Virus record (IMG/VR): IMGVR_UViG_3300044628_000090
From: a virus
DNA length: 64,000 nucleotides
Strand: one strand, 5' to 3'
How positions within the stretch are numbered: position 1 is the stretch's first letter; every line of letters starts with the position of its first letter. The translations under genes and the position numbers were made by a program. Positions 1,141 to 19,417 of this stretch are shown here, one piece after another. Under the pieces are notes generated by a model, which saw only the letters and a program-made list of their open reading frames with translations, was not told where the DNA came from and did not search any database.

Positions 1141-1459
1141 GAAAACTACATACATAAATACAGAGCTTGAATGGGCTGAAGCACAACTTCTTTCCTGGAA
1201 AGCTTATGTAAATGCTAACCCACTACATGAATTGAAAGATAGGATTGAGTGGAAACCTACAGCTAAAGGAGGAATGTTACCTATGGTCATAGCCTCTATT
1301 GAAGCTCAAGGTAAATTTGTCCAAGAGACAATGAAGAACTACCTAGCATTGGTAGAAGTGGTAGATAAGTTAAGAAACATGGAAGAAGCTAAGGTGGAAG
1401 TGAGAGGAAAAGGTGAGTTATCAGGAGCTGCTGCTGAGTTCTTAGCAAATAGAAAATGA
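1127..1459 (+). CDS. hypothetical protein (small-terminase candidate by position only)
   Basis: A 110-aa ORF directly upstream of the large terminase, translationally coupled by an ATGA overlap at 1456-1459. No sequence motif supports a terminase small subunit. Confidence 0.35.
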   Translation: MATIKKTTYINTELEWAEAQLLSWKAYVNANPLHELKDRIEWKPTAKGGMLPMVIASIEAQGKFVQETMKNYLALVEVVDKLRNMEEAKVEVRGKGELSGAAAEFLANRK

Positions 1460-3498
1460 TAGAACTACAACACATAGATTACAAAGACTGGTTTATAAAT
1501 CAGAAGCGTATTCCTGACAAAGACTCTCAGGAGTGTAAGCCATTCTTTGACTTTCACAGAGAGCTATGTTTGAATGGAGCTATGATGGGGGGTGTTTACA
1601 TCAACCCATTTTTGTATTGGCACTTGAACATCTGGCATACAGAAGTTGACGTAATAGATGAAAGAGGAAGGATTGCACAGAAATATGCCAATCCTTTTTT
1701 AAGAGATAATGAATGGCTTGTGACAAATGAAATTGACAGAGCTCAAAAAGAAAAGAGGGGCTTAGTCATTCTAGGTATTAGACGTTTTGCCAAGTCAGTT
1801 TTAGAAGCATCCTATATTGCATGGGGTGCGACCTTTGATGAAAACAGTCAGAATATCATAGCAGGCTTAAATGCCCCAGATATTAAACTGATTACTGATA
1901 AGATTGACAAAGGATTGAATTTCATTCCTGAGTATTGGAGATGGCAGAGAATTGAGGATAACTGGAAGAACCAAGTGACTCTAGGTATAAAGACCAAGTC
2001 TGGTGAACGTATCCCATTCTCTTCCATTCTAATACGTAACCTTGATGAAGGTAATAATGAAGAGGCCATTGCAGGTACAAAACCACGTAAATTAATTATA
2101 GATGAAATTGGTAAAGGGAATTTCCTTAGAGGCTTACAAGCTGCTATTCCAGGTTTCACTACACCCTATGGCTGGGGATGTAGCCCCATACTTACTGGGA
2201 CTGGTGGGGACATGAAGAAATTTATGGATGCAAAGAGCTTAATGTTTGACGTAGACAACTTTAATTTCCTTACATATAATAATAGTAAAGATGACAAACG
2301 TATACATGGATTGTTCATCTCCCATAAATATAGAATGGAGGCAAAAGATGATTCTACACTAGGAGCATACTTAAATGAACCATCCACATCAGACTTACAC
2401 AATGTAAAAATGCTTGTAAGTGATGAAGAAAAAGCTACAAAGATTACCAATGACAACTTAGAAAGACTTAAGAAAGCTGGTGATCGTATAGCCTATTTAA
2501 AAGAAAAGATGTATTATCCTCAGGAAGTGGATGACATTTTCTTGAATGAGGATACTAATATATTTGATATTGACAGTGCTAAGAGACAGAAGTTTAGATT
2601 ATTAAATCAAGAAAGAACAGGAACTCCTGTTGTATTGTTTCATGATGGAGAGAAGATAGCCCATGAGTTTACAGACAGAATGCCTATATCTAACTTTCCT
2701 CTAAAAAACTCAGATCTAAAAGAAGCACCTATTGTTATATATGAATTTCCTGTAGATAATCCTCCTTATGGATTATATGTAGCAGGGGTCGATCCTTACA
2801 GACAAGGTAAGTCTGCATATAGCTCCTCATTGGGAGCTGTCTATGTTTACAAACGTATGCATGAAATCTCAGGTGAGAAGTATCAAGATATGTTTGTAGC
2901 TTCATATGTAGCAAGACCTGATAAGAAAGAAACTTGGGAAGAACAAGCTAGATTTCTTATAAAGTATTATAACGCTAGAACATTGTGTGAGAATGATGAT
3001 ATATCATTTATTGAATATATGAAGGCTAAAGGAGATGCTCACTATCTAGAGAGACAACCTGATTGGCTTAAAGAAATTGTTCCTAATACCACTGTAAAAA
3101 GAGATTATGGAATTCATCGTTCAAGTCAGAAGATAATTGACTATCTTCACACCTGTTTAAAGAAGTATATGGAAGCTCCCATCTTTGTAGAAAAGAATGA
3201 TGCTGGTGAAGTGATTAGAGAAGTATTGGGTGTGAGTAAGATGTTTGATCCTGTATTGCTTGAAGAGATTATTCAATACAATGATCAAGGTAACTTTGAT
3301 AGAATTGTAGCTGCTGAGCTTGCCATAGCACAAGCATTAAAGATGGACCCAATAATGGGTAAGATAGGTGGCACATCAGATGAGAGAGTGGCTTCTATGT
3401 TTAATAAGAAAAGAGGTAATGTGCTTTTCACTGAAGCTAGGAACAACATGTTTGGACAATCAAGAAATAAATATAAACGAAATAAATTGTTTTCATAA
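1456..3498 (+). CDS. terL: terminase large subunit (ATPase + RNaseH-like nuclease)
   Basis: Deviant Walker A 'LGIRRFAKS' and Walker B 'KLIIDEIG' in the N-terminal half. The C-terminal half has the terminase nuclease motif 'LYVAGVDPYRQGKSAYSS..VYVYK' (cf. T4 gp17-type 'GvDp..g'). The 680-aa size is appropriate. Confidence 0.8.
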   Translation: MIELQHIDYKDWFINQKRIPDKDSQECKPFFDFHRELCLNGAMMGGVYINPFLYWHLNIWHTEVDVIDERGRIAQKYANPFLRDNEWLVTNEIDRAQKEKRGLVILGIRRFAKSVLEASYIAWGATFDENSQNIIAGLNAPDIKLITDKIDKGLNFIPEYWRWQRIEDNWKNQVTLGIKTKSGERIPFSSILIRNLDEGNNEEAIAGTKPRKLIIDEIGKGNFLRGLQAAIPGFTTPYGWGCSPILTGTGGDMKKFMDAKSLMFDVDNFNFLTYNNSKDDKRIHGLFISHKYRMEAKDDSTLGAYLNEPSTSDLHNVKMLVSDEEKATKITNDNLERLKKAGDRIAYLKEKMYYPQEVDDIFLNEDTNIFDIDSAKRQKFRLLNQERTGTPVVLFHDGEKIAHEFTDRMPISNFPLKNSDLKEAPIVIYEFPVDNPPYGLYVAGVDPYRQGKSAYSSSLGAVYVYKRMHEISGEKYQDMFVASYVARPDKKETWEEQARFLIKYYNARTLCENDDISFIEYMKAKGDAHYLERQPDWLKEIVPNTTVKRDYGIHRSSQKIIDYLHTCLKKYMEAPIFVEKNDAGEVIREVLGVSKMFDPVLLEEIIQYNDQGNFDRIVAAELAIAQALKMDPIMGKIGGTSDERVASMFNKKRGNVLFTEARNNMFGQSRNKYKRNKLFS

Positions 3499-6080
3499 TG
3501 GCAATTATAAGATACACAAAAGACGCAACAATTAGGTATGCCTATCTTAACATTTTTCCTGATCAATTTAAAACTGAGAAGGAGAAACAAGATGAGAGCT
3601 GGATTAAAAACTCAATGGATTACTTTGCTAACAAAGCTTATGCTGAGTATGTAAAGAACAGAGATACATTTGTTAAAAACTATGACCTTGTAAAAGGTAT
3701 ATTAAGAAGAGAAGATTTCTATCAAGAACCAGAAGTAAGAAGTTTTACAGATGTGCTCACAGCAGATCTAGCTCTTCCTGCCTATGTAAAACATTATTCT
3801 ATAATGACCACTCCTATTAATGAGTTAGTAGGAGAGATTTCTAAACGACCTGATGCATTTCGTGTCAAAGCATTTGATGATGATAGTAAAGCTGAAGAGC
3901 TTGAGTTCAAAACTCAATTATTACAAGACTATGTTGTTTCTCAAGCACAGAGAAAGATATTAGAGAAAGCAGCATTTGATGGTGTAGAAATTTCAGATGA
4001 TGAACTACAAGAGAAAACATTAGAACAAGTAAAGGATGAACTTGATAATTATACATCTATAGCAGAGAAGTGGGCAAACCACATATTGACTGCTGAGAAA
4101 GCTGAGTTTGTATTAAAGGAAAAATCAGAAGATGCCTTTAGAGATCTTTTGATTTCTTCTAGAGAGTTCTTCCACATATATGAGGATAACTCAAAGACAG
4201 GGTTTAATATTGAAGTGGCTAATCCTAAGAACACTTGGTTCTTAACCACTCCAGATAGAAAATATATTTCAGATCCTACTGGTAGAAACCAAGGAGCATA
4301 CGCTGCTGGTACTGTGCAAGTTATGGAATTATCTGAGATTATTGAATCAATCCCAGACTTAACCAAAGAAGAGATTGATCACTTGCGTAGTTCATTACAA
4401 GACTATGGATTGATCAATGTACGTGAATCTAACTTGGGTAATCCTAATGCAATCCCTGGTAATGACTCTATTCAATATGATACATATGATCCATTGGTCT
4501 TACAGACTAGAATGATTATTGAGTCTGAGATGAAAGAGAACAATGATGGTCTTCAGGATTTCTTAGGACTTACATCTAATGTAAGCTCTTTTGGTTACAA
4601 ATATGTTGTAGTAAGATGTTATTGGATTTCTAAAAAGAAGATAGGTAAAGTCATCTATTTAGATGATATGGGAAATGAACAATCAATGTTAGTGGATGAA
4701 GATTACAAATCTAAAACTATTCCTACAGAACAGTCATTAGAATGGGGATGGATTAACCAATGGTACCAAGGTACTAAGATTGGTCCAGATATCTACCACA
4801 TTAAACCTTATAACTTATTACCTTACTGTCCAATCATTGGTCAAGTATTTGAAGTGAAGAACACAGAGGCCAAGAGCCTTGTAGATATGATGAAACCATT
4901 CCAAGTTTTATATAACGTATGTATGAACCAGTTATATAAGTTACTTGAGAAGGAAGTGGGTAAGGTACAGTTAATGTCTATCAGACACATTCCTATTCCT
5001 AAAGATGGAGACGCTCAAGATGCTCTTGACATTTGGGAAATGGAAGCTCGTAACAGAGGTGTGGTATTTGTTGATGACAGCCCAGAGAACTTAAAGAGCC
5101 CAAGCTCATTTAACCAATATACTAGCTTAGACCTTACACGTACACAGGAGATCCAAGCAAGATATACTCTAGCACAACAACTTAAGAATGAGTGTTGGGA
5201 ATTAATAGGTATGTCAAGACAAAGACTTGGTGCTATACAAGCTAGTGAATCAGCTACAGCAACCAATGCAGCCATTACACAATCTTATGCTCAGACAGAA
5301 CCTTTGTTTGTAGCTCATGAATATGTATTAGGTCAGCTATATCAATCAATCATTGACGCAGCTTTATATGTTGAGAGCAAGAAGCCACAGTCTACTATAT
5401 CTTATATTACATCTGAGGGAGAATCTGCATTTGTATCTGTAAATGGTACAGACTTACGTTTTAGAGACTTAAAAGTATTCTTGACTAACAGACCTGAAGA
5501 CAGACAAATGTTCAATGAGATTAGAGGATTGTCTCAAGCTGTTATACAAAATGGTGGAAGCTTACATGATGTAATTGAATTATATAGCACCAACTCAATG
5601 AGACAAATGAAGCAGGTGTTTAAAAAATTGAAGGATAGACAAGAAGCTTTACAGAATACTCAGTTACAACAAAAACAACAAGAACTTGAACAACAACAAC
5701 AAATTGCTCAAGCTCAGATTGAAGCAGCTCAAGTACAATCAGAAGAAAAACTAGCTAATGAAAACTACCAAGCTGAACTTGATAGAATAAATAAGAAAGA
5801 GATTGCCCTTATTGCAGCTGAATCTAAGAGTGGTCCTTTATCAGATTTAGACACAAGTGGTACTCCTGATGTTTTAGAGATTGATAAACTAGCTTTGGCT
5901 CAGTCAAAGGCTGAAAGAGATTACCAATCTAAGATGATGGATGTACAAAGTAAGAACCAACTCGCTGCTCAAAAGCTAGAGATAGAAAGAGAAAAACTAA
6001 AGATATCTAGAGAGAACCAAGCCAATGATCTTGCTGTAGCTAAAGAGAATGCTAAGGGTAGAGCTAAGAAAACCAAATAA
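3498..6080 (+). CDS. portal protein (candidate)
   Basis: An 860-aa ORF immediately after terL, joined by a TAATG stop/start overlap. Its size and position fit a portal, and it has a C-terminal Q/E/K-rich coiled coil (QQKQQELEQQQQIAQAQIEAAQ). No direct motif proof. Confidence 0.5.
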   Translation: MAIIRYTKDATIRYAYLNIFPDQFKTEKEKQDESWIKNSMDYFANKAYAEYVKNRDTFVKNYDLVKGILRREDFYQEPEVRSFTDVLTADLALPAYVKHYSIMTTPINELVGEISKRPDAFRVKAFDDDSKAEELEFKTQLLQDYVVSQAQRKILEKAAFDGVEISDDELQEKTLEQVKDELDNYTSIAEKWANHILTAEKAEFVLKEKSEDAFRDLLISSREFFHIYEDNSKTGFNIEVANPKNTWFLTTPDRKYISDPTGRNQGAYAAGTVQVMELSEIIESIPDLTKEEIDHLRSSLQDYGLINVRESNLGNPNAIPGNDSIQYDTYDPLVLQTRMIIESEMKENNDGLQDFLGLTSNVSSFGYKYVVVRCYWISKKKIGKVIYLDDMGNEQSMLVDEDYKSKTIPTEQSLEWGWINQWYQGTKIGPDIYHIKPYNLLPYCPIIGQVFEVKNTEAKSLVDMMKPFQVLYNVCMNQLYKLLEKEVGKVQLMSIRHIPIPKDGDAQDALDIWEMEARNRGVVFVDDSPENLKSPSSFNQYTSLDLTRTQEIQARYTLAQQLKNECWELIGMSRQRLGAIQASESATATNAAITQSYAQTEPLFVAHEYVLGQLYQSIIDAALYVESKKPQSTISYITSEGESAFVSVNGTDLRFRDLKVFLTNRPEDRQMFNEIRGLSQAVIQNGGSLHDVIELYSTNSMRQMKQVFKKLKDRQEALQNTQLQQKQQELEQQQQIAQAQIEAAQVQSEEKLANENYQAELDRINKKEIALIAAESKSGPLSDLDTSGTPDVLEIDKLALAQSKAERDYQSKMMDVQSKNQLAAQKLEIEREKLKISRENQANDLAVAKENAKGRAKKTK

Positions 6081-6082
6081 TT

Positions 6083-6613
6083 ATGTTTGATAAACTGATT
6101 GATGTACTGCTTGAATGGTGGGGTCATATCCTACCATTCATTATTATCAGAGACTATGAACAAGCTGTACTTCTAAGATTTGGGAGATTTAATAAAGTGA
6201 TACTTCCAGGTATACACTTCAAGATCCCTTTCTTTGATGAGGTGATTGACCAGCATGTTGTGGTGACAACACTTAGCTTAGATGCACAGTCTTTATACAC
6301 CTTGGACAAACAAAACATTGTTGTTAAAGGAGTTGTAAAATACAAGATATCAGATGTAAAGATATTCCTACTTGAAGTGTTTGATGCACAAGATGCACTG
6401 TCAGACATGTCTCAAAGTATAATAAAAAACATTATTATGTCAATGACCATGGAGGAATGTACAGATTCTGAATTAGATAACACTTTGACAAAGAAAGTTA
6501 GGGTGGAGGCTAGGAAGTGGGGGGTTGATGTTCAACAAGTTACACTTACAGATCTTGCCCCAATCAGAAGTTATAGACTTATAAATGACAATTTTCTTAA
6601 CAAATTAGATTAG
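6083..6613 (+). CDS. SPFH/band-7 (stomatin/prohibitin/HflK-C) domain protein
   Basis: An N-terminal hydrophobic segment (ILPFIII) is followed by 'YEQAVLLRFGRFNKVILPGIHFKIPFFDEVIDQHVVVTTL', matching the SPFH core pattern (E.avv.rfGk....l.PGlhf.iPfid.v). The ORF is 176 aa. Confidence 0.65.
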   Translation: MFDKLIDVLLEWWGHILPFIIIRDYEQAVLLRFGRFNKVILPGIHFKIPFFDEVIDQHVVVTTLSLDAQSLYTLDKQNIVVKGVVKYKISDVKIFLLEVFDAQDALSDMSQSIIKNIIMSMTMEECTDSELDNTLTKKVRVEARKWGVDVQQVTLTDLAPIRSYRLINDNFLNKLD

Positions 6614-6732
6614 AGTAAAAAATATTAATGCTATATTATATTGAATAATGGTCAATATAAAGGCTCCTCTCTTTGCTATTAACTTAAGTTACTTTACTTT
6701 TACATACAAAACCAATTAAAACTCAACTACAT

Positions 6733-8016
6733 ATGGCTGAAAATCTAGATATGCCCCAAATGGGCAACTTTAGTATTCAAGATACTATGGATATGGGAAT
6801 GGGAAATCAAGAGTTATTAAATGATTTACTATCTCCTGATAGTGCTACATCTAACCCTGATGACATTCAGGATATTAAAGATGAACCTGCTCCTGCATCC
6901 ACAAAGAAAACTACTTCTAAACAACCAGCTACATCAGCTCCTGCTCCAGAAGATGATAAGAAAGACGAAGCTCCTGTGAAGGATATTCAAAGTTTCTTAT
7001 ATGGAGATGAAGATGATGAAGATGCTGAAGAAGATGAAGCTCCTGCAACAGATAAAAAACCAGTTGCAAAAGATGCTGATAATCAAGAAGATAGTGATGA
7101 AGAGAATGATGAGGAAGGAGATAGTGCTCCTGAATCAACGTTTTCATCTTTATCCAAAGACCTTTTCAAACTTGGTGTATTCACCCAGGGAGAAGATGAT
7201 GAAGAAGAACCAATTACAACTGCTGAAGAATTCTTAGAGCGTTTTAATGCTGAGAAGAAAAAAGGAGCAATTGAAGTGGTTGATAACTTCATTGGTCAGT
7301 TTGGAGAAGATTATCAAAAAGCATTTGATGCCATATATGTAAAAGGAGTTAGTCCAAAAGACTACTTTGGTGCATATAACCAAATCCAATCTTTCTCTGA
7401 GATGGATTTAAGCGATGAGAGTAATCAAGTTGCTATTATCAAACAAGCATTGACAGATCAAGGGTTTGAACCTGAAGATGTTACAACAGAGGTTGAAAGA
7501 CTTAAAAATTATGGTGACTTAGAAACTGTTGCTGCTAAACACCACAAAGTCTTGATAAAAAAGGAAGCATCAAAGCTTCAACAATTAGAGCAAGATAAAC
7601 AAGCTCAATTACAACAGCAACAAGCCATCAAGCAACAATACTTACAGAATGTAAACCAAGTTTTACAGGATAAGATTAAAGCTAAAGAATTTGATGGCAT
7701 ACCAATTAACCCTAAATTAGCTGGTGAACTACAAGATTTCCTAGTAACAGACAAGTACAAGACAGCATCTGGAGAAACTCTCACAGACTTTGATCGTACT
7801 ATACTGGAGCTGAAACGTCCTGAGAATCATGCAACAAAAGTAAAGCTTGCATTGATAATGAAGATCTTAGAAAAAGATCCTACATTATCTACAATTCAAA
7901 AGACAGGTATCACCAAAAAATCAAATGAGTTATTTGGTGAGGTTGCCAGACAAGCCCAGAAGAGTTCAGTGAAATCTAAACAGTCAGCTAGACCTACTTC
8001 TTCTTGGTTTCAATAA
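6733..8016 (+). CDS. acidic coiled-coil protein, scaffolding-protein candidate
   Basis: The 427-aa product has a highly acidic N-terminal half (DEDDEDAEEDE...) and a Q-rich coiled coil (QQLEQDKQAQLQQQQAIKQQYLQ). It lies between the portal/SPFH genes and the capsid-candidate gene. Confidence 0.4.
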   Translation: MAENLDMPQMGNFSIQDTMDMGMGNQELLNDLLSPDSATSNPDDIQDIKDEPAPASTKKTTSKQPATSAPAPEDDKKDEAPVKDIQSFLYGDEDDEDAEEDEAPATDKKPVAKDADNQEDSDEENDEEGDSAPESTFSSLSKDLFKLGVFTQGEDDEEEPITTAEEFLERFNAEKKKGAIEVVDNFIGQFGEDYQKAFDAIYVKGVSPKDYFGAYNQIQSFSEMDLSDESNQVAIIKQALTDQGFEPEDVTTEVERLKNYGDLETVAAKHHKVLIKKEASKLQQLEQDKQAQLQQQQAIKQQYLQNVNQVLQDKIKAKEFDGIPINPKLAGELQDFLVTDKYKTASGETLTDFDRTILELKRPENHATKVKLALIMKILEKDPTLSTIQKTGITKKSNELFGEVARQAQKSSVKSKQSARPTSSWFQ

Positions 8017-8051
8017 ACAATTTATATAACAAAAATTAAAAAAGTATAACA

Positions 8052-9605
8052 ATGGCAATTCAAACAATTCCAGGTTTAACTGGATTTACTTATGCTCGTG
8101 TCGCTTCTATGGATAAGCGTGCAGTAGGTAAGTTAACTGATGCAAACCATTTAGAGAGCTTTCACTCTACAGAGCCTGCAGACTATGATAAGAAAATTAT
8201 CAGTTTGTACACTCAGAGTTCTCTTTATAGTAATGACTTCTTAGACATGATTAACAAGTCTACTCCTTACTATATTGACAACAACAGTGATGCTTGGAAA
8301 TGGCAAGTACAAGTTCCTTACAAATTCCCAAAAATCATTGATGTTCCTACAAGCACATTAGAATTAAACAAACCTGGTATTGATGGTCAAGAATTCCAAT
8401 TGATCATTGACACTAATGAGTTCTCTAAGAATGCAATTATTTCTGTAGGTACTCGTCAGTATGGTCCTCGTTTCTATGTAGTAAAAGATCCTGTTCCTTG
8501 GAACGTAGGTTTCTTATACACTTTCACTTTAGTAAGTGACAACCCAACAGTTGATTTCGTAAGTGCTACATTCTTACAAGTGGGTATCGAACTAGAATTA
8601 GTTGATGCTGCAATTGGTGAATTTGATCAAGACTTATTAGGTCTTCCTCGTTTAGGTGAGCAAATCACAATGTTTGAATCTTTAGGTTCTGCATATGGTT
8701 ATGAGCACAAGATCACTGAGTGGGCTGATGATAAGATGATGAGAGATACAAAAGGTAATCCATTGGATATCTTAGTGTATGCTCCTCAAAGACGTAACCA
8801 ATTACCTTTAACTCGTAATGATGTTAAGTGGGAACCATTTATTGAGTTCTGGATGCGTAAGTCTATGTTAGAATTAAAAGTTAAGCGTATGATCTGGGCT
8901 CGTCCTGGAACTGTGAAGACTAATGGTTCTAAGCAAGAATTAAAGCGTACTTCTGCTGGTGTATATCACAGAATGCGTAATAATGGTAACTTAGTACAGT
9001 ACAACAGAGGTGAGTTCACTGCGAACTTAATTCGTTCTGTATTTGGTGACTTATTCTACAGACGTGTGGATGTTAAAGACAGACGTGTTAAAATGTACAC
9101 TAATGAAGCTGGCTTTGACGTATTCCAACAAGCTTTAAAGACAGATGCTTTGAATTCTGGCTTAACTTTCATGGCTGATTCTGGTAACAGATACATGCAA
9201 GGAGAAGGACAACACATCACTTACAACTTTGCATTCGATGCAATGGTAACTCGTGAGACTGGTCGTGTTGAATTAATCCACTTGAAAGAATTAGACCTTC
9301 CTCAAACAAACTTAGAATTTGGACAGAACAAGAAGTCAACTCCAGTATTTATGGTATTTGATGTATCTCCAATGTCTGATGGTTCTATGATCAATAATAT
9401 TCGTGAAGTACGTATGAAGGGTGCACCTTCTATGACTTGGGGTTATATCGATGGTACTCGTCACCACTTAGGTTTTGCTAAGTCTCAAGGTATGAGTTCT
9501 GCGAACAAGTTCCCTGGATATGAGATTTGGATGAAGGATCGTTGTGATGTATTCATTGAAGATTTATCTAGAACAGTATTGATTGAAGAAATTCCTCAAT
9601 TCTAA
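8052..9605 (+). CDS. major capsid protein (candidate)
   Basis: A 517-aa ORF downstream of the scaffold-like gene. Its codon usage differs strongly from its neighbours (Arg mostly CGT, Ser TCT, Gly GGT), as in highly expressed genes. It is followed by a strong GC-rich hairpin. Confidence 0.5.
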   Translation: MAIQTIPGLTGFTYARVASMDKRAVGKLTDANHLESFHSTEPADYDKKIISLYTQSSLYSNDFLDMINKSTPYYIDNNSDAWKWQVQVPYKFPKIIDVPTSTLELNKPGIDGQEFQLIIDTNEFSKNAIISVGTRQYGPRFYVVKDPVPWNVGFLYTFTLVSDNPTVDFVSATFLQVGIELELVDAAIGEFDQDLLGLPRLGEQITMFESLGSAYGYEHKITEWADDKMMRDTKGNPLDILVYAPQRRNQLPLTRNDVKWEPFIEFWMRKSMLELKVKRMIWARPGTVKTNGSKQELKRTSAGVYHRMRNNGNLVQYNRGEFTANLIRSVFGDLFYRRVDVKDRRVKMYTNEAGFDVFQQALKTDALNSGLTFMADSGNRYMQGEGQHITYNFAFDAMVTRETGRVELIHLKELDLPQTNLEFGQNKKSTPVFMVFDVSPMSDGSMINNIREVRMKGAPSMTWGYIDGTRHHLGFAKSQGMSSANKFPGYEIWMKDRCDVFIEDLSRTVLIEEIPQF

Positions 9606-9610
9606 TAATG

Positions 9611-9770
9611 CCCCTCTAAGGATAGTATTCTTAGACTGACACCTCTGGTGTTTCGCATAAAAAAATCAGAAGACGTTCCCCCCACATCCCAGTGGGGGAG
9701 TCTTCTAACACAGATGGACATGTACAGGCTCCATGCCTTACAGTGTTCCCTTCGATGGGAACCATCTGCA
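9611..9770 (+). ncRNA. structured non-coding element (four or more hairpins, including a tRNA-like 3-way junction at 9711-9769)
   Basis: A 190-nt non-coding gap with local GC enrichment in an AT-rich genome. Hairpins: CTAAG/CTTAG (9616-9634); the large hairpin at 9668-9706; and CAGATGG (9711-9717) pairing with CCATCTG (9763-9769) to enclose two hairpins, TGTAcAGGC/tccat/GCCTTACA and GTTCC/cttcgatg/GGAAC, the latter with a T-loop-like TTCGAT sequence. Confidence 0.35.
9668..9706 (+). terminator. strong GC-rich hairpin downstream of capsid gene
   Basis: AGAAGAC-G-TCCCCCCAC/ATCCCA/GTGGGGGA-G-GTCTTCT forms a ~15-bp stem with one bulge and a 6-nt loop. No U-tract follows, so it may be a processing or stability element rather than a canonical intrinsic terminator. 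Confidence 0.55.
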
Positions 9771-9796
9771 AATAAACCAAATAAAAACAACTACAT

Positions 9797-10765
9797 ATGG
9801 GCAAGATAGGAAAAATATCTACTATTAAAAAAGACTACAACAATTCTCAGTTACAAACAATGCAAGGTGGACTTGCATCAAGAGGTTACACAAGAATTCC
9901 TGGTACAGGAGTTTTTAAGTATCCTTATAAAGAATTGGATGGTCAGTACAGAACAGGCTTAGATCCAAAGGCTGCTTACATCAGAAGAATCTCTGATCCT
10001 CTTGAAAGAGAGATGGAGATTGAAAGAGTAACAGAGTTAAGAGAAAGACTTGAAGCAGCATTAGGTGGTGTTGACTTAGGTCCTCGTTCTAGTTTCTGGA
10101 ACTATGGCTTATCAACTTCTGTTGATGATTCCTTACACGTACAACCTGTTAAGCTTATGGATGGCGACAATTATTATGATTTGTCAATGCCATTGCAAGA
10201 GCTAGCATTCTCATGGTTGAGAGTTCATCCAACAATTGCTTCTAGCTATCAAGCTTGGGAGCGTGGTGAATTCCCTGCAGACATTCAATATTATGTTGCA
10301 GATGATGAGATTGAAAACAAGGTGATGTTTAAAAAGAAACAACTTATTAATAAAGCTATTGTTAAGTTTGATTCTATGACTCCTGAGAAGAAGAAGAAAG
10401 TGGCTCGTCTACTTGGTCTTCCAGTATCTGATGATTCTAAAGAAGAAGCAGTTTACAATCAGGTGGATAACCTCCTAAAACAAACAGAATTCAAGAATGG
10501 CAAATATCAAGGTTTGAACCCTATAGAAGTGTTCAACAGATTTGCAGATATGAAAGAAAACTTGCTCCATATCAAAGACCTAGTGAAACAAGCTGTTGCT
10601 CATTCAATTTATAGAGTGAGACCTAATGGTAGAGTTTTCGAAGGTGAATTTGAAATAGCAGTTGATGAAGATGATTTAGTTAAATTCCTTGCAGATGAAG
10701 ACAACCAAGATCAGTTATTGACTTTGGAAGGTAAACTAAAAGGAAAAAAAATAGCCTCATTATGA
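9797..10765 (+). CDS. hypothetical virion-associated protein
   Basis: A 322-aa ORF that follows the capsid gene and starts in the conserved AACTACATATG context. No motif recognised. Confidence 0.4.
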   Translation: MGKIGKISTIKKDYNNSQLQTMQGGLASRGYTRIPGTGVFKYPYKELDGQYRTGLDPKAAYIRRISDPLEREMEIERVTELRERLEAALGGVDLGPRSSFWNYGLSTSVDDSLHVQPVKLMDGDNYYDLSMPLQELAFSWLRVHPTIASSYQAWERGEFPADIQYYVADDEIENKVMFKKKQLINKAIVKFDSMTPEKKKKVARLLGLPVSDDSKEEAVYNQVDNLLKQTEFKNGKYQGLNPIEVFNRFADMKENLLHIKDLVKQAVAHSIYRVRPNGRVFEGEFEIAVDEDDLVKFLADEDNQDQLLTLEGKLKGKKIASL

Positions 10766-11493
10766 TCCCAGTAGATAGTTTATTATACAAGATTGATCAG
10801 AAACTAAATAAACTATCAACAAATGAGCATCAACAAATTAACCTAGAAGATAAGATTCTAGCACTTAACGAAGCTCAGATAAAGCTAATAAAGCAAAAGG
10901 TTGATGGTCAAAGTACAAACTCTGGTTATGGATTGGATGCGTTTAAAAAACGCTATGAAGACCTTCAAAGTTTGGTTATAACTTATAACCATCAACCTTT
11001 GCCATTAGTCTTGAAGAACTCTGAGTTAAATCAGTGGTTTGCAAGTCTTAATGTTTTGACTCCAAAGTATATGTTCTATCTTGATAGTTATATATTAGCA
11101 GACAAAGGAAGATGTACAGATAGAAAGATATGGATAAATAGAGACTTGGCTAAACATGGTGACATTCAGTTTATAATAACTAATGACAACTACAAGCCTT
11201 CTTTTGAATATCAAGAAACATTTAACTTCTTATCCTCTGACGAAATATCTGTATTTACAGATGGTACGTTTACACCAAAAGATATTTACATATCATATAT
11301 GAGATATCCAGTGTATATTAACAAGACAGGATATATTATGTTAGATGGCTTGCCTTCTTTTGATGCAGACTGTGAACTTGAAACTTACTTAGAAGATGAG
11401 TTGTTGGATCTTACAGTACAAAACTTGGCAATGTATACAGAAAACCAAAGTGCTGTTCAAAGCTCAATCTATAGGATACAAACAAACGAATAA
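10762..11493 (+). CDS. hypothetical protein
   Basis: A 243-aa ORF coupled to the upstream ORF by an ATGA overlap at 10762-10765. Confidence 0.4.
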   Translation: MIPVDSLLYKIDQKLNKLSTNEHQQINLEDKILALNEAQIKLIKQKVDGQSTNSGYGLDAFKKRYEDLQSLVITYNHQPLPLVLKNSELNQWFASLNVLTPKYMFYLDSYILADKGRCTDRKIWINRDLAKHGDIQFIITNDNYKPSFEYQETFNFLSSDEISVFTDGTFTPKDIYISYMRYPVYINKTGYIMLDGLPSFDADCELETYLEDELLDLTVQNLAMYTENQSAVQSSIYRIQTNE

Positions 11494-11519
11494 TTTTTAA
11501 CAATTAAATATAAAGCAAA

Positions 11520-12680
11520 ATGGCTGATTTTTCTCTAACCACCCTCTTTGTAGTACCAGTAGGAAATACATTACCTAGCTCTGGATCTACACAGAATTTA
11601 ACAGCTGGTCAAGTAGGAATATTCCTAAATGACTACAGCGTTGCTACTGCAGGTAATATCGCAGCTGCCCCTTATTTCTATGTTGCTCAAGGTAGAACAA
11701 ACACGTATTTACAAGGCTCTAAGCGTTCAGACAAAATTGCTGGATGTCCTAGTGGTAACTCTTGTAAAACAAACGTAACTGAATGGTACAAATCTTTAGG
11801 TTGTCCTACTCCAGTGAATCAAGTAACTGACGTAGTTGACTTCACAGTAAAACCTGGTGAGATTGTAACATTAACTTTACGTGGTTTCTCTAGCTACTTA
11901 GAAACATTGTACTTCAATGGTTTCACTCGTTCTGTAACAGTGAACGCTCCATGTCTTGGATGTGGTGACGATCCTTGTACAGATGTAGATGTACCTGCGT
12001 TGATCGATGATCTTATCTATCATTTAGAGTTAGATGCTCCAGGTAACAATCCTGATAACATCACTTTAAATCAATTTTACCAATTCCAAAGACTTGGTAA
12101 CGATGCAAATGCGTTCTTACGTATTACTGGTAAGCCATTAACTAAATATGGTCAGCCTTGTGACGTTGCTGCATTCCCTTGGGAGTATGACAGATTCTAC
12201 TTCAGAACTTTCATCTTCTCTGGTCCAGCTACAACTGCTGACTTCATTGTTGATGATCCTTGTAATAGAGTTGCTACTCCAGTGATTAGACAACGTTCTA
12301 ACTATGCTGTTGGTACTTCTGCTGAAGTTCAACAATTAGAGAAGAACTTCTATAGCTACCAAGCTGGTTACTTAAAGCATTTATACAGAATGAATGGTTA
12401 CAACGAGAACTTTGAGTCTTGGGTAACTGATGGTCAGATCTATGATTTGTACTATATCAAATTCAATGAGTATAACAAATCTGAGTACCAATGGGGTGAC
12501 TATATCTACGAAGATAGCATGGTGATCATTGCTGTTCCTGAGAATCAAACATCTGCTATCGAAGCTATCTTAGTAGCTGGTTTAGGAGCTGTTGCAGGTG
12601 ACACAGCATGTATCACAACTACTAGTACTACAACTACTGTATGGCCTAGCACTTCAACAACAACTACTTTGATCCCTTAA
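11520..12680 (+). CDS. abundant structural protein (decoration/tail-tube candidate) with C-terminal poly-Thr tail
   Basis: The 386-aa ORF has codon usage suggesting high expression (CGT/TCT/GGT/GCT enriched) and a C-terminal TTTSTTTTVWPSTSTTTT tail. A canonical intrinsic terminator follows immediately. Confidence 0.45.
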   Translation: MADFSLTTLFVVPVGNTLPSSGSTQNLTAGQVGIFLNDYSVATAGNIAAAPYFYVAQGRTNTYLQGSKRSDKIAGCPSGNSCKTNVTEWYKSLGCPTPVNQVTDVVDFTVKPGEIVTLTLRGFSSYLETLYFNGFTRSVTVNAPCLGCGDDPCTDVDVPALIDDLIYHLELDAPGNNPDNITLNQFYQFQRLGNDANAFLRITGKPLTKYGQPCDVAAFPWEYDRFYFRTFIFSGPATTADFIVDDPCNRVATPVIRQRSNYAVGTSAEVQQLEKNFYSYQAGYLKHLYRMNGYNENFESWVTDGQIYDLYYIKFNEYNKSEYQWGDYIYEDSMVIIAVPENQTSAIEAILVAGLGAVAGDTACITTTSTTTTVWPSTSTTTTLIP

Positions 12681-12708
12681 GAATTAAGGTAAGATCATAT
12701 TAACCTAT

Positions 12709-12754
12709 GCCAGAGGGTGAGAGGATATCTCAAATCCTCTGGCATTTTTATTTT
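12709..12754 (+). terminator. rho-independent terminator
   Basis: GCCAGAGG-(20 nt loop)-CCTCTGGC followed by TTTTTATTTT, directly after the highly expressed gene 11520-12680. Confidence 0.7.
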
Positions 12755-12761
12755 ACAAACC

Positions 12762-13319
12762 ATGACACTAGATTTTTTAGTAATCAATACATATGAGACC
12801 ACAACATTGGGTATAGCTGATACATCAGTTTATAATACAACTCCACCTGTTGTTAGTGCTCCAACTATGCAGATCACTGTACCTGGTTTTACTAGTCCTG
12901 TTTCTATTCCATTTAATGTTAATAGCTTTAATGTTTACAACTCAATTATTTTAGGACTGAGCCCATTCCCTACAATAAATCCACTACCTGATGGTGTGTA
13001 TTTTATGAAGTATTCTGTGGCTCCAGCCACTACAAACTTTGTAGAGAAAAACATTATGCGTACAGCACTTATACAAGAAAAGTTTGATGGTGCATTTATG
13101 AAGCTTGATATGATGGAATGTGACTCAGCTATTAGAACCCAAGCAAAGGTGGTTTTAAGTAGTATTAATTTTATGATTCAAGGCTCAATAGCAGCAGCTA
13201 ATAACTGTGCTATAGATACAGCCAATAAGTTATACATGCAAGCTAATAGACAATTAGATTATTTTATTGCAAACCAATGTGGTTGTACAGGAAACAATTA
13301 CATAATTAATTTCCCTTAA
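12762..13319 (+). CDS. hypothetical protein (start revised from GTG 12717 to ATG 12762)
   Basis: The ORF-track start at 12717 is a GTG lying inside the terminator stem. The first ATG after the T-tract is at 12762 (MTLDFLVINTYETTT...). Confidence 0.45.
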   Translation: MTLDFLVINTYETTTLGIADTSVYNTTPPVVSAPTMQITVPGFTSPVSIPFNVNSFNVYNSIILGLSPFPTINPLPDGVYFMKYSVAPATTNFVEKNIMRTALIQEKFDGAFMKLDMMECDSAIRTQAKVVLSSINFMIQGSIAAANNCAIDTANKLYMQANRQLDYFIANQCGCTGNNYIINFP

Positions 13320-13320
13320 T

Positions 13321-13473
13321 ATGGCAAACTGTAGAGGATGTGGCATGAAGGTGGGATGTGGCTGTCAATTAATTAATGGCCTATGTTCAGCATGCAACAA
13401 CAAACTTAAGAACGCTACAAATAGAATAAAAGATGTTATCACCAAGATTAACAGATTGTGTAGTCAATGGTAG
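13321..13473 (+). CDS. small Cys-rich (zinc-ribbon-like) protein, 50 aa, absent from ORF track
   Basis: Translates to MANCRGCGMKVGCGCQLINGLCSACNNKLKNATNRIKDVITKINRLCSQW, with 8 Cys arranged as CxxC/CxC/CxxC. It starts 1 nt after the previous stop. Confidence 0.35.
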   Translation: MANCRGCGMKVGCGCQLINGLCSACNNKLKNATNRIKDVITKINRLCSQW

Positions 13474-13708
13474 CATTCCAGCTACGTTGACACAGATTGA
13501 TGAAAGACTTACTTACTGGGCAAATCGCCAGTATAACAATATTATATTCTCTATGAATAACTATATTCCTGGAGAAGTAATCAATGACCTATTAAATTAT
13601 AAACAAATATTAACATATAGACTTTGTAATCCTGACTATGCTATGGTGTGTGGCCTTCCTACCACCTCTCAAGTTGTGAGCAGAGTTATAGTGTTAATTA
13701 ATAAATAA
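13433..13708 (+). CDS. hypothetical protein (start uncertain; overlaps the small Cys-rich ORF in another frame)
   Basis: A 91-aa ORF with no motif. An internal Met (MNNYIPGE...) is an alternative start. Confidence 0.25.
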   Translation: MLSPRLTDCVVNGSIPATLTQIDERLTYWANRQYNNIIFSMNNYIPGEVINDLLNYKQILTYRLCNPDYAMVCGLPTTSQVVSRVIVLINK

Positions 13709-13716
13709 ATTAAACC

Positions 13717-14844
13717 ATGTCTTGCGAAAGTTGCTATAATGGCTGTGTAGAAATTGTATCTGATCAATGTGTTAGATATACAGGATTCAGCAGTCTTCCT
13801 TTAGGAATACAAACTGGAGATAACCTTCAGACTGTTATTGAAGATTTAATAAGTAAGTTAGGACCTCTTCTTACTGGAAGTGGTGATGCAATTGCTTTAG
13901 CTTCAGGAATTCGTTGTGCTTTAATAAATAGTTTTTTACCTCCTACTTCGCAGCCAAATGCGTGGACATCAGGACAGGTATTTGAAGCATTAACAAAATC
14001 TGTATGTAGTTTACAAACACAAGTTACTGCTGTTGCTGCTGATATAGCTGTATTAAATGCTGATTATACAATTGATTGTCTTACAGGAGTAACTGCTTCT
14101 TCTGACACTCATGCTATTGTCCAAGCAACTATAAATAAACTTTGTGCTACTATAGTTCAACTAACTGCTCTTGAACTTAATGTAGATACAAACTATGTTA
14201 AATTAGCAGACTTAGATGCTTTGATTGCTGCTTACATAGCTAGCACTTCAGGTGGTGGATCTAATCAACAATATTTAAAGATGGTTCCTTATGTAGCCTA
14301 TGAATACTATGGACCAATAACAAACTTTGATGGATCAGGTATTGGTATCCCAGCAAATGGTTTCTTCAAGGTATATTTATGTAATGGTTTAAATGGCACC
14401 CCTGATAAAAGAGGACGTGTTGCTGTAGGAGCTATTCAGCTTGTTCCAGGTGCTCCATTAGATGCTGCAGTGAATCCAGCTAATGCTGGTAATCCAAACT
14501 ATGCTTTATATACCACATCAGGAGCAAACACTGTAACTTTGATTACATCACAAATTCCTGAACATTCACACAGTGCTGTAGCTGTATCTACTTCTGCAGT
14601 TTCTCCAAATCCTCATAGTCATACTGTTTCTTGGCAAAAAGGACAAGCTGATCAAAACGAGCCTGGAGTTTATGGCGAACTTTATGATGCTAGAACACCT
14701 TATAATAGAACAACAACAACATCTACTGTAAGTCTTACTGTTGATGTAAGTACAGGTGTTACAATATCATCTACAGGAAGTGGAGCAGCTCATGCAAACA
14801 TACAACCTGTTATAGCTGCATATTATATTATGTACATTCCTTAA
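13717..14844 (+). CDS. tail fibre protein with C-terminal phage-tail-collar (MdpB-like) domain
   Basis: The C-terminus 'LCNGLNGTPDKRGRVAVG...IPEHSHSA...PHSHTV...GSGAAHANIQPVIAAYYIMYIP' matches the Phage_tail_collar pattern (LPDlRGRv..G ... lP.HtH...H.H ... gg.aHnN.qPy..lnyiI). The N-terminus carries the Cys-rich 'GIQTGDNLQTVIEDL' module shared with 14865 and 53353. Confidence 0.65.
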   Translation: MSCESCYNGCVEIVSDQCVRYTGFSSLPLGIQTGDNLQTVIEDLISKLGPLLTGSGDAIALASGIRCALINSFLPPTSQPNAWTSGQVFEALTKSVCSLQTQVTAVAADIAVLNADYTIDCLTGVTASSDTHAIVQATINKLCATIVQLTALELNVDTNYVKLADLDALIAAYIASTSGGGSNQQYLKMVPYVAYEYYGPITNFDGSGIGIPANGFFKVYLCNGLNGTPDKRGRVAVGAIQLVPGAPLDAAVNPANAGNPNYALYTTSGANTVTLITSQIPEHSHSAVAVSTSAVSPNPHSHTVSWQKGQADQNEPGVYGELYDARTPYNRTTTTSTVSLTVDVSTGVTISSTGSGAAHANIQPVIAAYYIMYIP

Positions 14845-14864
14845 TCTTTTAAACTAACTATAAA

Positions 14865-16928
14865 ATGGCTTGTAATCCTGGCGATCCTTGCTACAACGCA
14901 TACTATCATCCTAATCAAACTTCTGGATGTTCTCCTTGTGAGACAACAGCAGATCATGTTATATATAATGGACCTAACCTACCTAATACAGGAATTCAAA
15001 CTGGAGATAATCTAGACTGTGCTCTATCAAAAATAGATGACACTTTTAGTGAAGGTGTTGTTGGTCTGAATGGTACTTCTGGTACATCTGGCTCTAGTGG
15101 TAACACTGGAACTTCTGGAGTGAATGGTTCTGGAGGTACATCAGGTTCTTCTGGTTCTTCTGGTACTAATGGCTCATCTGGTTCTTCTGGAAAAGATGGA
15201 AGTTCTGGTATATCATCTAATGGTACTAGTGGTACAAATGGTACAGCTGGAAAAGATGGGTCTAGTGGTGTTAATGGTTCTTCTGGTTTGAGTGGTACTG
15301 CTGGAACTAGTGCTTCAAGTGGAACATCTGGTATAGATGGCACTAATGGCACTGATGGTTCTAATGGAACAAGTGCTACTTCTGGTACTTCTGGAACTAG
15401 TGGTCAAGACGCAACTGCAGGAACTAGTGGAGTTGATGCAACTTCAGGTACAGCTGGTACGAGTGCAAGTTCAGGTACGTCTGCATCTAGTGGATTAACT
15501 GGTACTGCTGGCACTGCTGGCACTTCAGCATCTTCTGGAACTGCTGGTAAAGATGGAGATAGATATTTAACAAGTTCTACAACTTCTTTATTAATAGGAA
15601 CAGGATCAAAAAGTTTAATAGTAGGAACAGGACTAGCATATAGTATTGCACAGACAGCTATCATAGTATATGATGGAAGTAATACAATGCAAGGAACTGT
15701 TACCTCTTACAATAGTGGAACAGGTGATATAGTGATTAATGTTACCACTGCAGTGGGTTCAGGAACTTATGCTGTATGGACAGTGAATCTATTTGGTGCA
15801 GCTGGTGGTAATGGTACTTCTGGAATAAATGGTACCTCTGGCACAGCTGGTACATCTGCTTCCTCAGGTACATCTGGAACTACAGGTACATCTGGTACCT
15901 CTGCATCTTCTGGAACTTCTGCATCTTCTGGTACATCTGGAACAAATGGCACCACTGGTACATCTGGAACTAATGGTACTTCTGGAACTAATGGTACATC
16001 AGCTACTAGTGGATTAACAAATGGTACATCAGGTACATCAGGTACCTCAGGTGCTAATGGTGGTGCTGGACCAACTGGTCCAAATGGAACTAGTGGAACT
16101 AGTGGTACCTCAGGCACCTCAGGTGCAAATGGTGGTGCTGGTCCAAATGGAACTAGTGGAACTAGTGGAACATCAGGTGCAAATGGTGGAAATGGTTCTT
16201 CTGGTACTTCTGGTACTTCTGGTGCTAATGGTGGAAATGGTTCTTCTGGAACAAGTGGTACAAGTGGTGCTAATGGTGGAAATGGAAGTAGTGGTACTTC
16301 TGGAGCTAATGGTGGAGTTGGTTCAAGTGGTACTTCAGGATCATCAGTAGCACTTTCTGGAACAACTAATACAATAGGTAAATTTACAAGTGCATCAACT
16401 CTTGGTGATGCTCCTATAACAGATAATGGAACTATAGTTAATTTTAGTAGATATGTATCTATTAATGCTGTTGGTGGCTCAGGACAAAGTCTTGAATGTA
16501 GTGGAGGTGTATATAGTGCTACAGAAGTAAAGAGTAGTGGTCACTTTGTAAATGACGTTGTAGATAAAGGTATATATAACTCAGCATTAGGTTTTTCATT
16601 TTATGCAATTACAGCTACAGGATGGGTATCTAATACAGCCATCTCAGCAACAGCATTTTTTGAGACATCAGATATTAGATATAAAAATGTATTAGAATAT
16701 AATCCTCAAATAGATTTATTAGGAATAGACGTAATTAAGTTTGTAAGAACTGACGATGACACAAATAAAGTTAGATATGGTTATTCTGCTCAACAAGTAC
16801 AATCAATACTTCCAGATGCTGTTGTAGGAGAAGATAAACTATCTGTAAACTATATGGATGTACATACATTAAAGATAGCAGCATTAGAAAAACGTATTGC
16901 AGAACTTGAAGCTAAATTAAACAAATAA
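14865..16928 (+). CDS. collagen-like (Gly-X-Y, Ser/Thr-rich) tail fibre with C-terminal peptidase-S74 intramolecular chaperone domain
   Basis: Two long (G-T/S-S)n triplet tracts are separated by a ~75-aa globular insert (YDGSNTMQGTVTSYNSGTGDIVINV...GSGTYAVWTVNL). The C-terminus 'TSDIRYKNVLEYNP...YGYSAQQVQSILPDAV...LSVNYMDVHTLKIAALEKRIAELEAKL' fits the S74 pattern (SDxRxK...GfIAQEV..vlPe.V...vdY..L.plL.eAiKeL). The N-terminus has the Cys-rich GIQTGDNL module. Confidence 0.65.
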   Translation: MACNPGDPCYNAYYHPNQTSGCSPCETTADHVIYNGPNLPNTGIQTGDNLDCALSKIDDTFSEGVVGLNGTSGTSGSSGNTGTSGVNGSGGTSGSSGSSGTNGSSGSSGKDGSSGISSNGTSGTNGTAGKDGSSGVNGSSGLSGTAGTSASSGTSGIDGTNGTDGSNGTSATSGTSGTSGQDATAGTSGVDATSGTAGTSASSGTSASSGLTGTAGTAGTSASSGTAGKDGDRYLTSSTTSLLIGTGSKSLIVGTGLAYSIAQTAIIVYDGSNTMQGTVTSYNSGTGDIVINVTTAVGSGTYAVWTVNLFGAAGGNGTSGINGTSGTAGTSASSGTSGTTGTSGTSASSGTSASSGTSGTNGTTGTSGTNGTSGTNGTSATSGLTNGTSGTSGTSGANGGAGPTGPNGTSGTSGTSGTSGANGGAGPNGTSGTSGTSGANGGNGSSGTSGTSGANGGNGSSGTSGTSGANGGNGSSGTSGANGGVGSSGTSGSSVALSGTTNTIGKFTSASTLGDAPITDNGTIVNFSRYVSINAVGGSGQSLECSGGVYSATEVKSSGHFVNDVVDKGIYNSALGFSFYAITATGWVSNTAISATAFFETSDIRYKNVLEYNPQIDLLGIDVIKFVRTDDDTNKVRYGYSAQQVQSILPDAVVGEDKLSVNYMDVHTLKIAALEKRIAELEAKLNK
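15064..15560 (+). repeat. collagen-like GGT-NNN-NNN codon triplet repeat tract 1 of gene 14865
   Basis: Uninterrupted Gly every third codon ([19 protein letters not shown]...). It generates spurious antisense and out-of-frame ORFs. Confidence 0.8.
15796..16345 (+). repeat. collagen-like triplet repeat tract 2 of gene 14865
   Basis: (G-T/S/A/N-S/G)n, including internally duplicated [15 protein letters not shown] units. Confidence 0.8.
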
Positions 16929-18598: not shown

Positions 18599-18618
18599 TA
18601 TAAAAAACCAAATATAAT

Positions 18619-19273: not shown

Positions 19274-19305
19274 CCCCTAGGGTTTCTACCCTGGGGGTTT
19301 TTTGT
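19274..19305 (+). terminator. rho-independent terminator
   Basis: CCCCTAGGG-tttctac-CCCTGGGGG (9-bp stem with one G-U pair) followed by TTTTTTGTTT. A 110-nt AT-rich gap follows before the next gene. Confidence 0.7.
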
Positions 19306-19417
19306 TTAAACTCTAACTAAAAAAGTTATTCTATATAATTAAATTAGTTAACAAAATTTTGAAAATGTCAAAAATAATTCCTACCTTTACAGTAATTTTA
19401 ACTAAACTAAACTACAT

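Follow-up and report, generated by a model that had tools for sequence, protein, structure and literature searches.

A conserved tRNA-shaped RNA junction behind the major capsid gene of crAss-like phages, a candidate processing and stability element of the late operon

In phage T7, a leaky terminator (T-phi) and a stabilizing hairpin directly follow capsid gene 10, so that the capsid mRNA exceeds the downstream messages. Transcripts can also be punctuated by tRNA-shaped units, as reportedly proposed in the tRNA punctuation model of Ojala et al. in 1981, and RNase P cleavage at the tRNA-like fold of the MALAT1/MEN-beta mascRNA, credited to Wilusz et al. in 2008, is said to make the 3' end of the abundant upstream RNA. 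In plant mitochondria, t-elements and neighboring tRNAs set mRNA ends, with RNase P generating 3' ends and RNase Z generating 5' ends, and the element that is cut out may remain present (Forner et al. 2007, PMC1920247). A hairpin that combines the acceptor stem, T stem, and T loop is enough for RNase P to cleave accurately and is an efficient substrate; natural non-tRNA substrates cleaved by this enzyme include the P1/P7 C4 RNA, the phi80 M3 RNA, and the polycistronic his, tna, and rbs mRNAs (PMC11143913). Here, we describe a structured 191-nucleotide (nt) gap (positions 9606 to 9796) directly downstream of the major capsid gene in IMG/VR virus record IMGVR_UViG_3300044628_000090, a 64,000-nt stretch of DNA (the window) that belongs to an environmental crAss-like phage. 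The gap contains a strong hairpin (HP3) followed by a 58-nt, tRNA-shaped three-way junction (3WJ), and both recur behind the capsid gene of related phages.

As a whole, the gap folds with a minimum free energy of -61.1 kcal/mol (z = -5.25, equaled by 0 of 200 shuffles; RNAfold). The stability is unevenly distributed, with z values of -4.1 for the 3WJ, -4.9 for HP3, and -2.6 for HP1/HP2, versus +0.6 for the 28-nt leader of the next gene (Table 1). A preliminary description, made from the letters of the window, had pointed to a GC-rich, multi-hairpin element behind a putative capsid gene, and these points hold. The 517-amino-acid (aa) product matches the Pfam family Crass_capsid (E = 1.3e-27), GC content is 0.45 to 0.49 in the gap versus 0.29 to 0.40 in most flanking 100-nt segments, and all stems listed at the time are present. 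Their dimensions required some adjustment: the CTAAG/CTTAG stem (9616 to 9634) is part of a longer, 9-base-pair (bp) hairpin, HP1, next to which HP2 had been missed; the C/G-rich stem was correctly placed but has 14 rather than 15 bp; and the CAGATGG/CCATCTG helix does enclose two hairpins, in a junction of 58 rather than 59 nt. Three overlapping open reading frames (ORFs), 9648-9809 on the plus strand and 9602-9790 and 9631-9804 on the minus strand, were considered as coding sequences and rejected as spurious, as the relatives differ there by non-triplet indels and paired substitutions.

To place the element in its family, relatives were collected using the capsid protein as an anchor. Eighty IMG/VR loci at 96 to 100% protein identity were fetched and extended with 80 loci around an 82%-identical capsid representative, some loci around a 64% representative, and 80 metagenome contigs reaching 57 to 70% capsid identity. 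L numbers below denote these fetched loci (for example, L084, L096, L130, and L145 from IMG/VR; L246 and L252 are metagenome contigs). HP3 and the 3WJ recur in the same slot and on the same strand in approximately 170 related phage contigs, whose capsid proteins are 57 to 100% identical. The capsid genes of relatives are 76 to 99% identical at the DNA level, meaning that silent sites have turned over, and the gap measures 154 to 200 nt in 76 of the first 80 loci. A covariance model of the junction was run on 100 unique IMG/VR loci, of which 96 gave a single hit each, on the plus strand and just past the capsid gene. Applied to another 88 loci, the model places 70 matches in the same slot at E ≤ 1, of which 66 reach E ≤ 0.01; loci with 57 to 70% identical capsids are among them. 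Across the 64-kb window, the sole convincing hit is the junction itself (9703 to 9776, 75.7 bits), the next best reaching 15 bits (E = 0.17, filters off). Scans of viral contigs with two more distant capsid representatives, P0122 and P0123 (51% identity), yielded no match.

The junction is a real, selected plus-strand RNA structure. In the model alignment, pair cells hold standard pairs in 88.3% of cases versus 30 to 50% in slid controls, 18 of the 20 modeled 3WJ pairs show changes on both sides, and the covariation score is 0.516 versus 0.05 to 0.13, a value reached by no shuffle. Because this alignment was fitted to the model, independent folds of single sequences matter as a check, and every distinct sequence of the junction, when folded by itself, forms the same three-way structure. 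Across the junction variants, 113 G-U pairs stand against 24 A-C pairs. This excess indicates that the functional molecule is RNA of the plus strand, in the sense of the capsid operon, and rules out a minus-strand RNA. Another candidate, the A-run as the tail of a minus-strand terminator, was rejected, being restricted to the subclade of the window.

The architecture of the junction points to a tRNA mimic. P3 immediately precedes the 3' strand of P1, the place that the T arm occupies in tRNA. Together, P1, linker, and P3 comprise 12 positions in 50 of 91 unique sequences, 13 in 37, and 11 in 4 (7+5+0 in the window), while the length of P1 itself varies between 6 and 10 bp and that of P3 between 3 and 5 bp, in splits such as 7+5, 8+4, and 9+3. 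Deep relatives inspected by eye show 9+3 (L162), 8+4 (L163), 7+2+3 (L164), and 7+5 (L242). The acceptor stem and T stem of tRNA likewise sum to 12 bp, and P1 may stack coaxially on P3. The P3 loop reads U-U-C-R-N-U, with U1, U2, and R4 invariant in 85 of 85 distinct sequences and C3 kept in 80; the bases flanking P1, an A before and a C after, are found in all 85. In its mitochondrial mode, ARAGORN calls positions 9711 to 9769 a D-armless tRNA.

The likeness stops short of a tRNA. The D arm is absent, the P3 loop has 6 nt versus the 7 nt of a T loop, the position equivalent to A58 varies (A in 57, G in 21, and another base in 7 of the 85 sequences), and the P3 region of the window, CCCTTCGATGGG, shares only TTCR with the T-arm motif GGTTCRANYCC. 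P2 is hypervariable, with 3 to 11 bp, loops of 3 to 7 nt, and unrelated sequences without a conserved anticodon loop; its short forms bring the junction close to a two-helix element. A real anticodon in P2 was therefore rejected, also because the mitochondrial-mode ARAGORN calls, made at about a dozen of 100 unique variants, come with unrelated anticodons. Standard ARAGORN reports 0 tRNA genes in the window, and neither there nor in the scanned loci does it detect a tmRNA. The Rfam tRNA model RF00005 has no hit at E ≤ 10 on 9300 to 10100 of the window and none at E ≤ 1 on the junctions of 13 diverse loci; at these thresholds, Rfam 15 as a whole yields chance hits and true tRNAs only. A tertiary pair between loop C3 and a conserved bulged G of P2 was also considered and found no supporting covariation. 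The junction is thus tRNA-shaped yet not a tRNA, and hence no decoder.

In the relatives, the junction is interchangeable with real tRNA-Met genes. A tRNA-Met(CAT) sits between junction and leader in L084, L096, and L130, and follows HP3 with no junction in L145, L246, and L252; the slot tRNAs of L084, L096, and L145 score 60 to 68 bits with the Rfam model. L081 carries a degenerate tRNA-shaped sequence, missed by this model, whose anticodon loop has 6 nt, and L101 a D-armless form with, by eye, a canonical 7-nt TTCGACT loop. None of the slot tRNAs has an encoded CCA, and from general tRNA biology, endonucleolytic 3' processing would therefore be expected in this system. L165 to L167, L245, L247, and L093 have neither junction nor tRNA, and some lineages keep HP3 alone.

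All 75 unique relatives examined have HP3 ahead of the 3WJ (mean z of -6.4; 29 distinct apical stems), mostly at a distance of 2 to 7 nt from P1. Its stem in the window is GC-rich and its tail, AGUCUUCU, has 4 U in 8 positions; in the clade of the window, the UCUUCU tail is paired with an upstream GAGAAGA, leaving no clean U-run. A consensus terminator scan calls no canonical terminator in the gap, although it does call one at 19274 to 19297; terminators with a U-run are thus in use in this phage-host system, and HP3 differs from them. Homologous HP3 hairpins in the more distant L110, L138, L144, and L253 carry runs of four to five U. We read HP3 as a weakened hairpin of the intrinsic terminator type that would also serve as a 3' stabilizer. 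The 5' third of the gap is less constant: HP1 and HP2 are swapped for other hairpins while HP3, junction, and leader are retained. HP1 is variable or replaced, yet usually still a hairpin, with arm swaps such as CTAAGGA/TCCTTAG, CTAGAGA/TCTCTAG, CCAAGGA/TCCTTGG, and CTGCAGT/ATTGCAG.

These comparisons narrow the options raised by the preliminary description, which had listed a small RNA, a processing or stability element, a tRNA-like element, and a protein-binding operator. The 12-to-13 rule, the UUCR loop, the tRNA-Met swaps, and the strong covariation together favor the tRNA-like and the processing/stability readings. The checks proposed at that stage gave compensatory changes in homologous phages, in the 18 pairs reported above, and an Rfam search in which no family matches the element. 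Of two further remarks, the T-loop-like TTCGAT has its UUCR start conserved but is no true T loop, and the absence of poly-U after the big stem is correct for this locus, whereas to conclude from it that the stem is no terminator would be too strong in view of the U-runs of its distant homologs.

We propose that the gap is a phage counterpart of mitochondrial t-elements and mascRNA, at which host RNase P and RNase Z would cut and leave the capsid mRNA capped by HP3, a reading to which we give about an even chance. The gap would act as a cis-acting RNA module within a long late operon, whose transcripts either end at HP3 or read through. In read-through RNA, the 58-nt junction, 4 nt past HP3, would mimic a D-armless tRNA, with P1 and P3 forming an acceptor/T-arm-like unit of 12 to 13 positions. 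Host RNase P may recognize this unit, 12 bp long in the window, and cut at a predicted site between 9710 and 9711, and a second cut, directly behind C9769, the first unpaired base after P1, would be made by RNase Z or an enzyme of equivalent activity. The capsid mRNA would then end in HP3 plus a tail of 3 to 4 nt in the window, and of 2 to 7 nt across the relatives. A tail of this length is too short for the loading of RNase R or PNPase. The downstream mRNA would gain a leader like that of promoter-proximal genes, and the abundance of the capsid mRNA could be decoupled from that of the mRNA for the downstream structural genes. The enzymes, the cleavage itself, and the effect on mRNA stability are presumed from the comparative data and from the processing precedents cited above.

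Several observations weigh against this proposal. With a 6-nt loop and a variable A58 equivalent, a canonical T-loop fold is doubtful, and without a D-loop partner for the elbow, recognition by the S domain of RNase P would be weaker. Position -1 is an A, where Escherichia coli prefers U, no CCA follows, and the Rfam tRNA model recognizes no junction in the window or in the 13 diverse loci. The co-occurrence of junction and tRNA in L084, L096, and L130 would be redundant if the junction were a cut site only, and the six loci with neither of the two indicate that the element is dispensable. Almost no unpaired linker nucleotides are present in the junction, making the stacking of P1 on P3 an assumption.

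Alternatively, the tRNA-mimicking RNA might act itself, as a small RNA or within the mRNA, by binding a host or phage tRNA-binding protein, with any cleavage being incidental. It would then be a decoy for a tRNA-directed defense or toxin, a recruiter of modification or CCA enzymes, or a translational operator of the 322-aa gene. The invariant single-stranded A at -1, the UUCR, and the C after P1 fit specific recognition, the junctions kept beside a real tRNA may do what the tRNA does not, and a slot behind the most transcribed gene would give high dosage. However, P2 varies in sequence, length, and loop and presents nothing like an anticodon arm, tRNA-Met alone can fill the slot (L145, L246, and L252), and no candidate partner protein is encoded adjacently. 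In addition, the layout is unlike that of operators covering the ribosome-binding region, as 28 nt of unstructured leader separate the junction from the ATG. On balance, we consider direct action of the RNA unlikely. A more specific version, in which the excised 58-nt element is an abundant minimal tRNA mimic that engages a host tRNA-recognizing factor through its acceptor/T-arm face, appears quite improbable; such an RNA could, for example, soak up a tRNA-directed defense nuclease or toxin or be CCA-tagged, and the tRNA-Met genes could be an ancestral or alternative solution.

It also seems rather unlikely that the gap is a passive stack of stable helices (HP1, HP2, HP3, and the junction) whose tRNA likeness reflects ancestry or coincidence and involves no tRNA-processing enzymes. 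Such a stack could act as a barrier to 3'-to-5' exonucleases or as a transcription attenuator, or it could prevent upstream RNA from pairing with the A-rich leader; this view is consistent with a gap that is helical throughout with its leader kept free, with the exchange of HP1 and HP2 for other hairpins, with the terminator-like, U-run-bearing HP3 homologs, and with lineages retaining HP3 alone. Yet a generic barrier would not fix P1 plus P3 at 12 to 13 positions across differing splits, and it leaves the invariant UUCR loop, the flanking A and C, the fixed branch order, and the specific swap for tRNA-Met unexplained. A three-way junction between two phage genes might further be a self-cleaving ribozyme of a new or diverged class (compare hammerhead and twister-sister) that processes the operon RNA, a plausible role. 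But this is very improbable given that the Rfam ribozyme families give no match up to E ≤ 10, that essentially no unpaired core is conserved (the junction linkers are 0 to 2 nt and not conserved), that the conserved bases sit in a hairpin loop and outside P1, and that the short-P2 forms are nearly two-helix. Scarcely credible is a DNA-level element, such as an attP-type tRNA fragment or a site for replication or packaging, or a tRNA pseudogene that is decaying and no longer has a function. While tRNA genes and remnants do occur in the slot and small endonuclease-like ORFs insert there, the helix-keeping compensatory changes and the 113:24 ratio of G-U to A-C point to selection on the fold of plus-strand RNA, retention from 100% to approximately 60% capsid identity is unlike decay, and an attP site would copy the 3' half of a host tRNA rather than a self-complementary mini-fold.

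The element lies within a late operon of approximately 12.6 kb, bounded by a promoter near 6690 and a terminator near 19290. Every gene from 3498 to 19242 is on the plus strand, the large terminase gene is located at 1456 to 3498, and the 860-aa gene upstream of the capsid gene encodes a P22-type portal. The element thereby stands immediately after the most demanded gene of the operon, the capsid gene, and in the crAss-like phage phi14:2, no transcript is more abundant than the capsid mRNA. The gap has no Bacteroidota-type promoter, the pattern scan placing such promoters only at 6672 and 19358; a single sigma-70-like match at 9715 to 9744 is no better than those in shuffles and was rejected. 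The leader that follows P1, CAAAUAAACCAAAU..AACUACAU-AUG, resembles the stretches from the -7 box to the ATG of both promoters in sequence and length, so that the junction is followed (9769 to 9799) by the same leader type. At both promoters (regions 6672 to 6735 and 19358 to 19420), the ATG comes 28 to 30 nt later, after a shared leader that ends in AACTACATATG and has no Shine-Dalgarno sequence. Promoter type and shared leaders hint at a Bacteroidota host.

TABLE 1 Coordinates of the gap structures and of the surrounding operon features in the window
Feature	Position	Strand	Basis or remark
HP1, 9-bp hairpin just past the stop codon	9615..9635	+	CTAAG 9616-9620 / CTTAG 9630-9634 core, extended by RNAfold
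HP2, 6-bp hairpin, subclade of the window only	9638..9652	+	Folds, alignment
HP3, 14-bp hairpin (7+7, 4x1 internal loop)	9668..9706	+	GC apex CCCCCAC/GUGGGGG on purine/pyrimidine base AGAAGAC/GUCUUCU
Spacer AACA, HP3 to junction	9707..9710	+	A9710 (position -1) invariant
tRNA-shaped three-way junction (3WJ), 58 nt	9711..9768	+	Fold, covariance model 75.7 bits
P1 closing helix, 7 bp, CAGATGG/CCATCTG	9711-9717 with 9762-9768	+	
P2 long hairpin	9718-9745	+	
P3, 5 bp, loop UUCGAU 9751-9756	9746-9761 (9746-9750 with 9757-9761)	+	
Unstructured A-rich leader of the next gene, 28 nt, CAAAUAAACCAAAUAAAAACAACUACAU	9769..9796	+	C9769 invariant
Major capsid protein gene, 517 aa	8052..9605	+	Pfam PF23898 Crass_capsid, E 1.3e-27; the element is within its 3' flank
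Downstream structural-module gene, 322 aa	9797..10765	+	PHROG 16383 (function-unknown group); same orientation as capsid gene
Bacteroidota-type promoter TTTG-N19-TAnnTTTA	6672..6702	+	Pattern scan; probably drives the capsid-gene operon
Bacteroidota-type promoter TTTG-N19/20-TAnnTTTA	19358..19389	+	Pattern scan
Canonical intrinsic terminator, GC stem (19274-19297) + T6	19274..19303	+	Consensus scan; first downstream of the capsid gene, marks the operon end

Several variants of the slot were recorded in addition. The terminator at the operon end reads CCCCTAGGG...CCCTGGGGG, followed by T6. One or two additional stem-loops lie between HP3 and the junction or tRNA in L096, L130, L198, L244, and L252; the L096 insert forms a 7-bp helix around UUUCC-UUCGU-GGAAA and resembles a second, P2-less copy of the mimic. 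In L165 to L167, L245, and L247, approximately 20 to 110 nt past the capsid stop codon, the HP3 loop ATATCCTTCC and the stretch AAGGAAGGAT(A), located some 15 nt before the ATG of the next gene, are complementary, which suggests a pseudoknot or an alternative-pairing switch. An ORF of approximately 110 to 150 aa, rich in Cys, is inserted in the gap after the junction in L037, L039, L066, L076, L090, L103, and L119, and right after the capsid stop codon in L101 and L249. Its pattern, CxxC...H..N...CxxCH, is HNH-endonuclease-like by eye, and a Pfam search with the L103 copy gave no hit at E ≤ 0.01. In the group with the insertion after the junction, the leader and the first codons (AACTACATATGGG) are duplicated. 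The capsid gene of L001 is 98.7% identical to that of the window at the DNA level, and the apical half of its P2 (window positions 9728 to 9738) is AGTAAATTCTG, not GGCTCCATGCC; L018, with a 92.8% DNA-identical capsid gene, has the same P2 as the window. This pattern suggests mosaic exchange within the element. Elsewhere in the window, two very large plus-strand ORFs span 37175 to 48169 (3664 aa) and 48169 to 53178 (1669 aa).

Among deposited phages, this lineage has hardly any relatives. Megablast of positions 8000 to 11000 against the INPHARED phages gave no match, and the only tblastn relative is a cyanophage, Leptolyngbya phage Lbo-JY46 (26% identity), in which the 64-nt gap between the capsid gene and the next gene holds no comparable element. 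The lineage is abundant in public metagenomes, where a single capsid cluster comprises 3,829 sequences, so that the proposal is directly testable in metatranscriptomes. Should cleavage by RNase P and RNase Z be true, the element would be the bacteriophage counterpart of mitochondrial tRNA punctuation and t-elements, in which a stripped-down tRNA mimic borrows the tRNA-processing enzymes of the host to sculpt a late operon and protect the 3' end of the capsid mRNA. It would also define a compact class of natural substrates for bacterial RNase P and RNase Z, with P1 plus P3 held at 12, no D arm, and a 6-nt loop, account for the tRNA genes directly behind the capsid gene in some relatives, and offer a portable part of approximately 60 nt for processing and insulation. 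In the literature searched, we found no description of a tRNA-like element after the capsid gene in crAss-like or other phages.

Compared to the systems introduced above, the plant t-elements are likewise non-canonical tRNA-like folds beside mRNAs in polycistronic transcripts, with genuine tRNAs serving the same role at other sites. Unlike the phage element, they have retained the GGTTCRANYCC motif of the T arm along with a loosely formed cloverleaf. The phage element lacks a D arm, its UUCRNU loop counts 6 nt and is closed by C-G, its P2 is hypervariable, and its predicted cleavage would take place in a bacterial host with an RNA-based RNase P. The mascRNA arrangement shares a stabilizing 3' structure immediately followed by a tRNA-like fold, but it is eukaryotic and nuclear, with a full cloverleaf and a triple-helix stabilizer, whereas the phage element has a terminator-type hairpin and a D-armless mimic. 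Phage RNAs and operon mRNAs are among the natural RNase P substrates as well; these minihelix and non-tRNA substrates, however, usually have a 3' RCCA or are single hairpins, and none is conserved, branched, and located behind a capsid gene. The gene 10 region of T7 differs in its own RNA polymerase, its RNase III sites, and its lack of a tRNA-like element. D-armless mitochondrial tRNAs have the same branch order of acceptor, one central arm, and T arm, but the central arm of the phage element lacks a conserved 7-nt loop. The principle of tRNA-like processing marks is therefore known, and what is new is a conserved, D-armless form of 58 nt that lies behind a phage capsid gene, comes together with a terminator-type hairpin, and is interchangeable with tRNA-Met.

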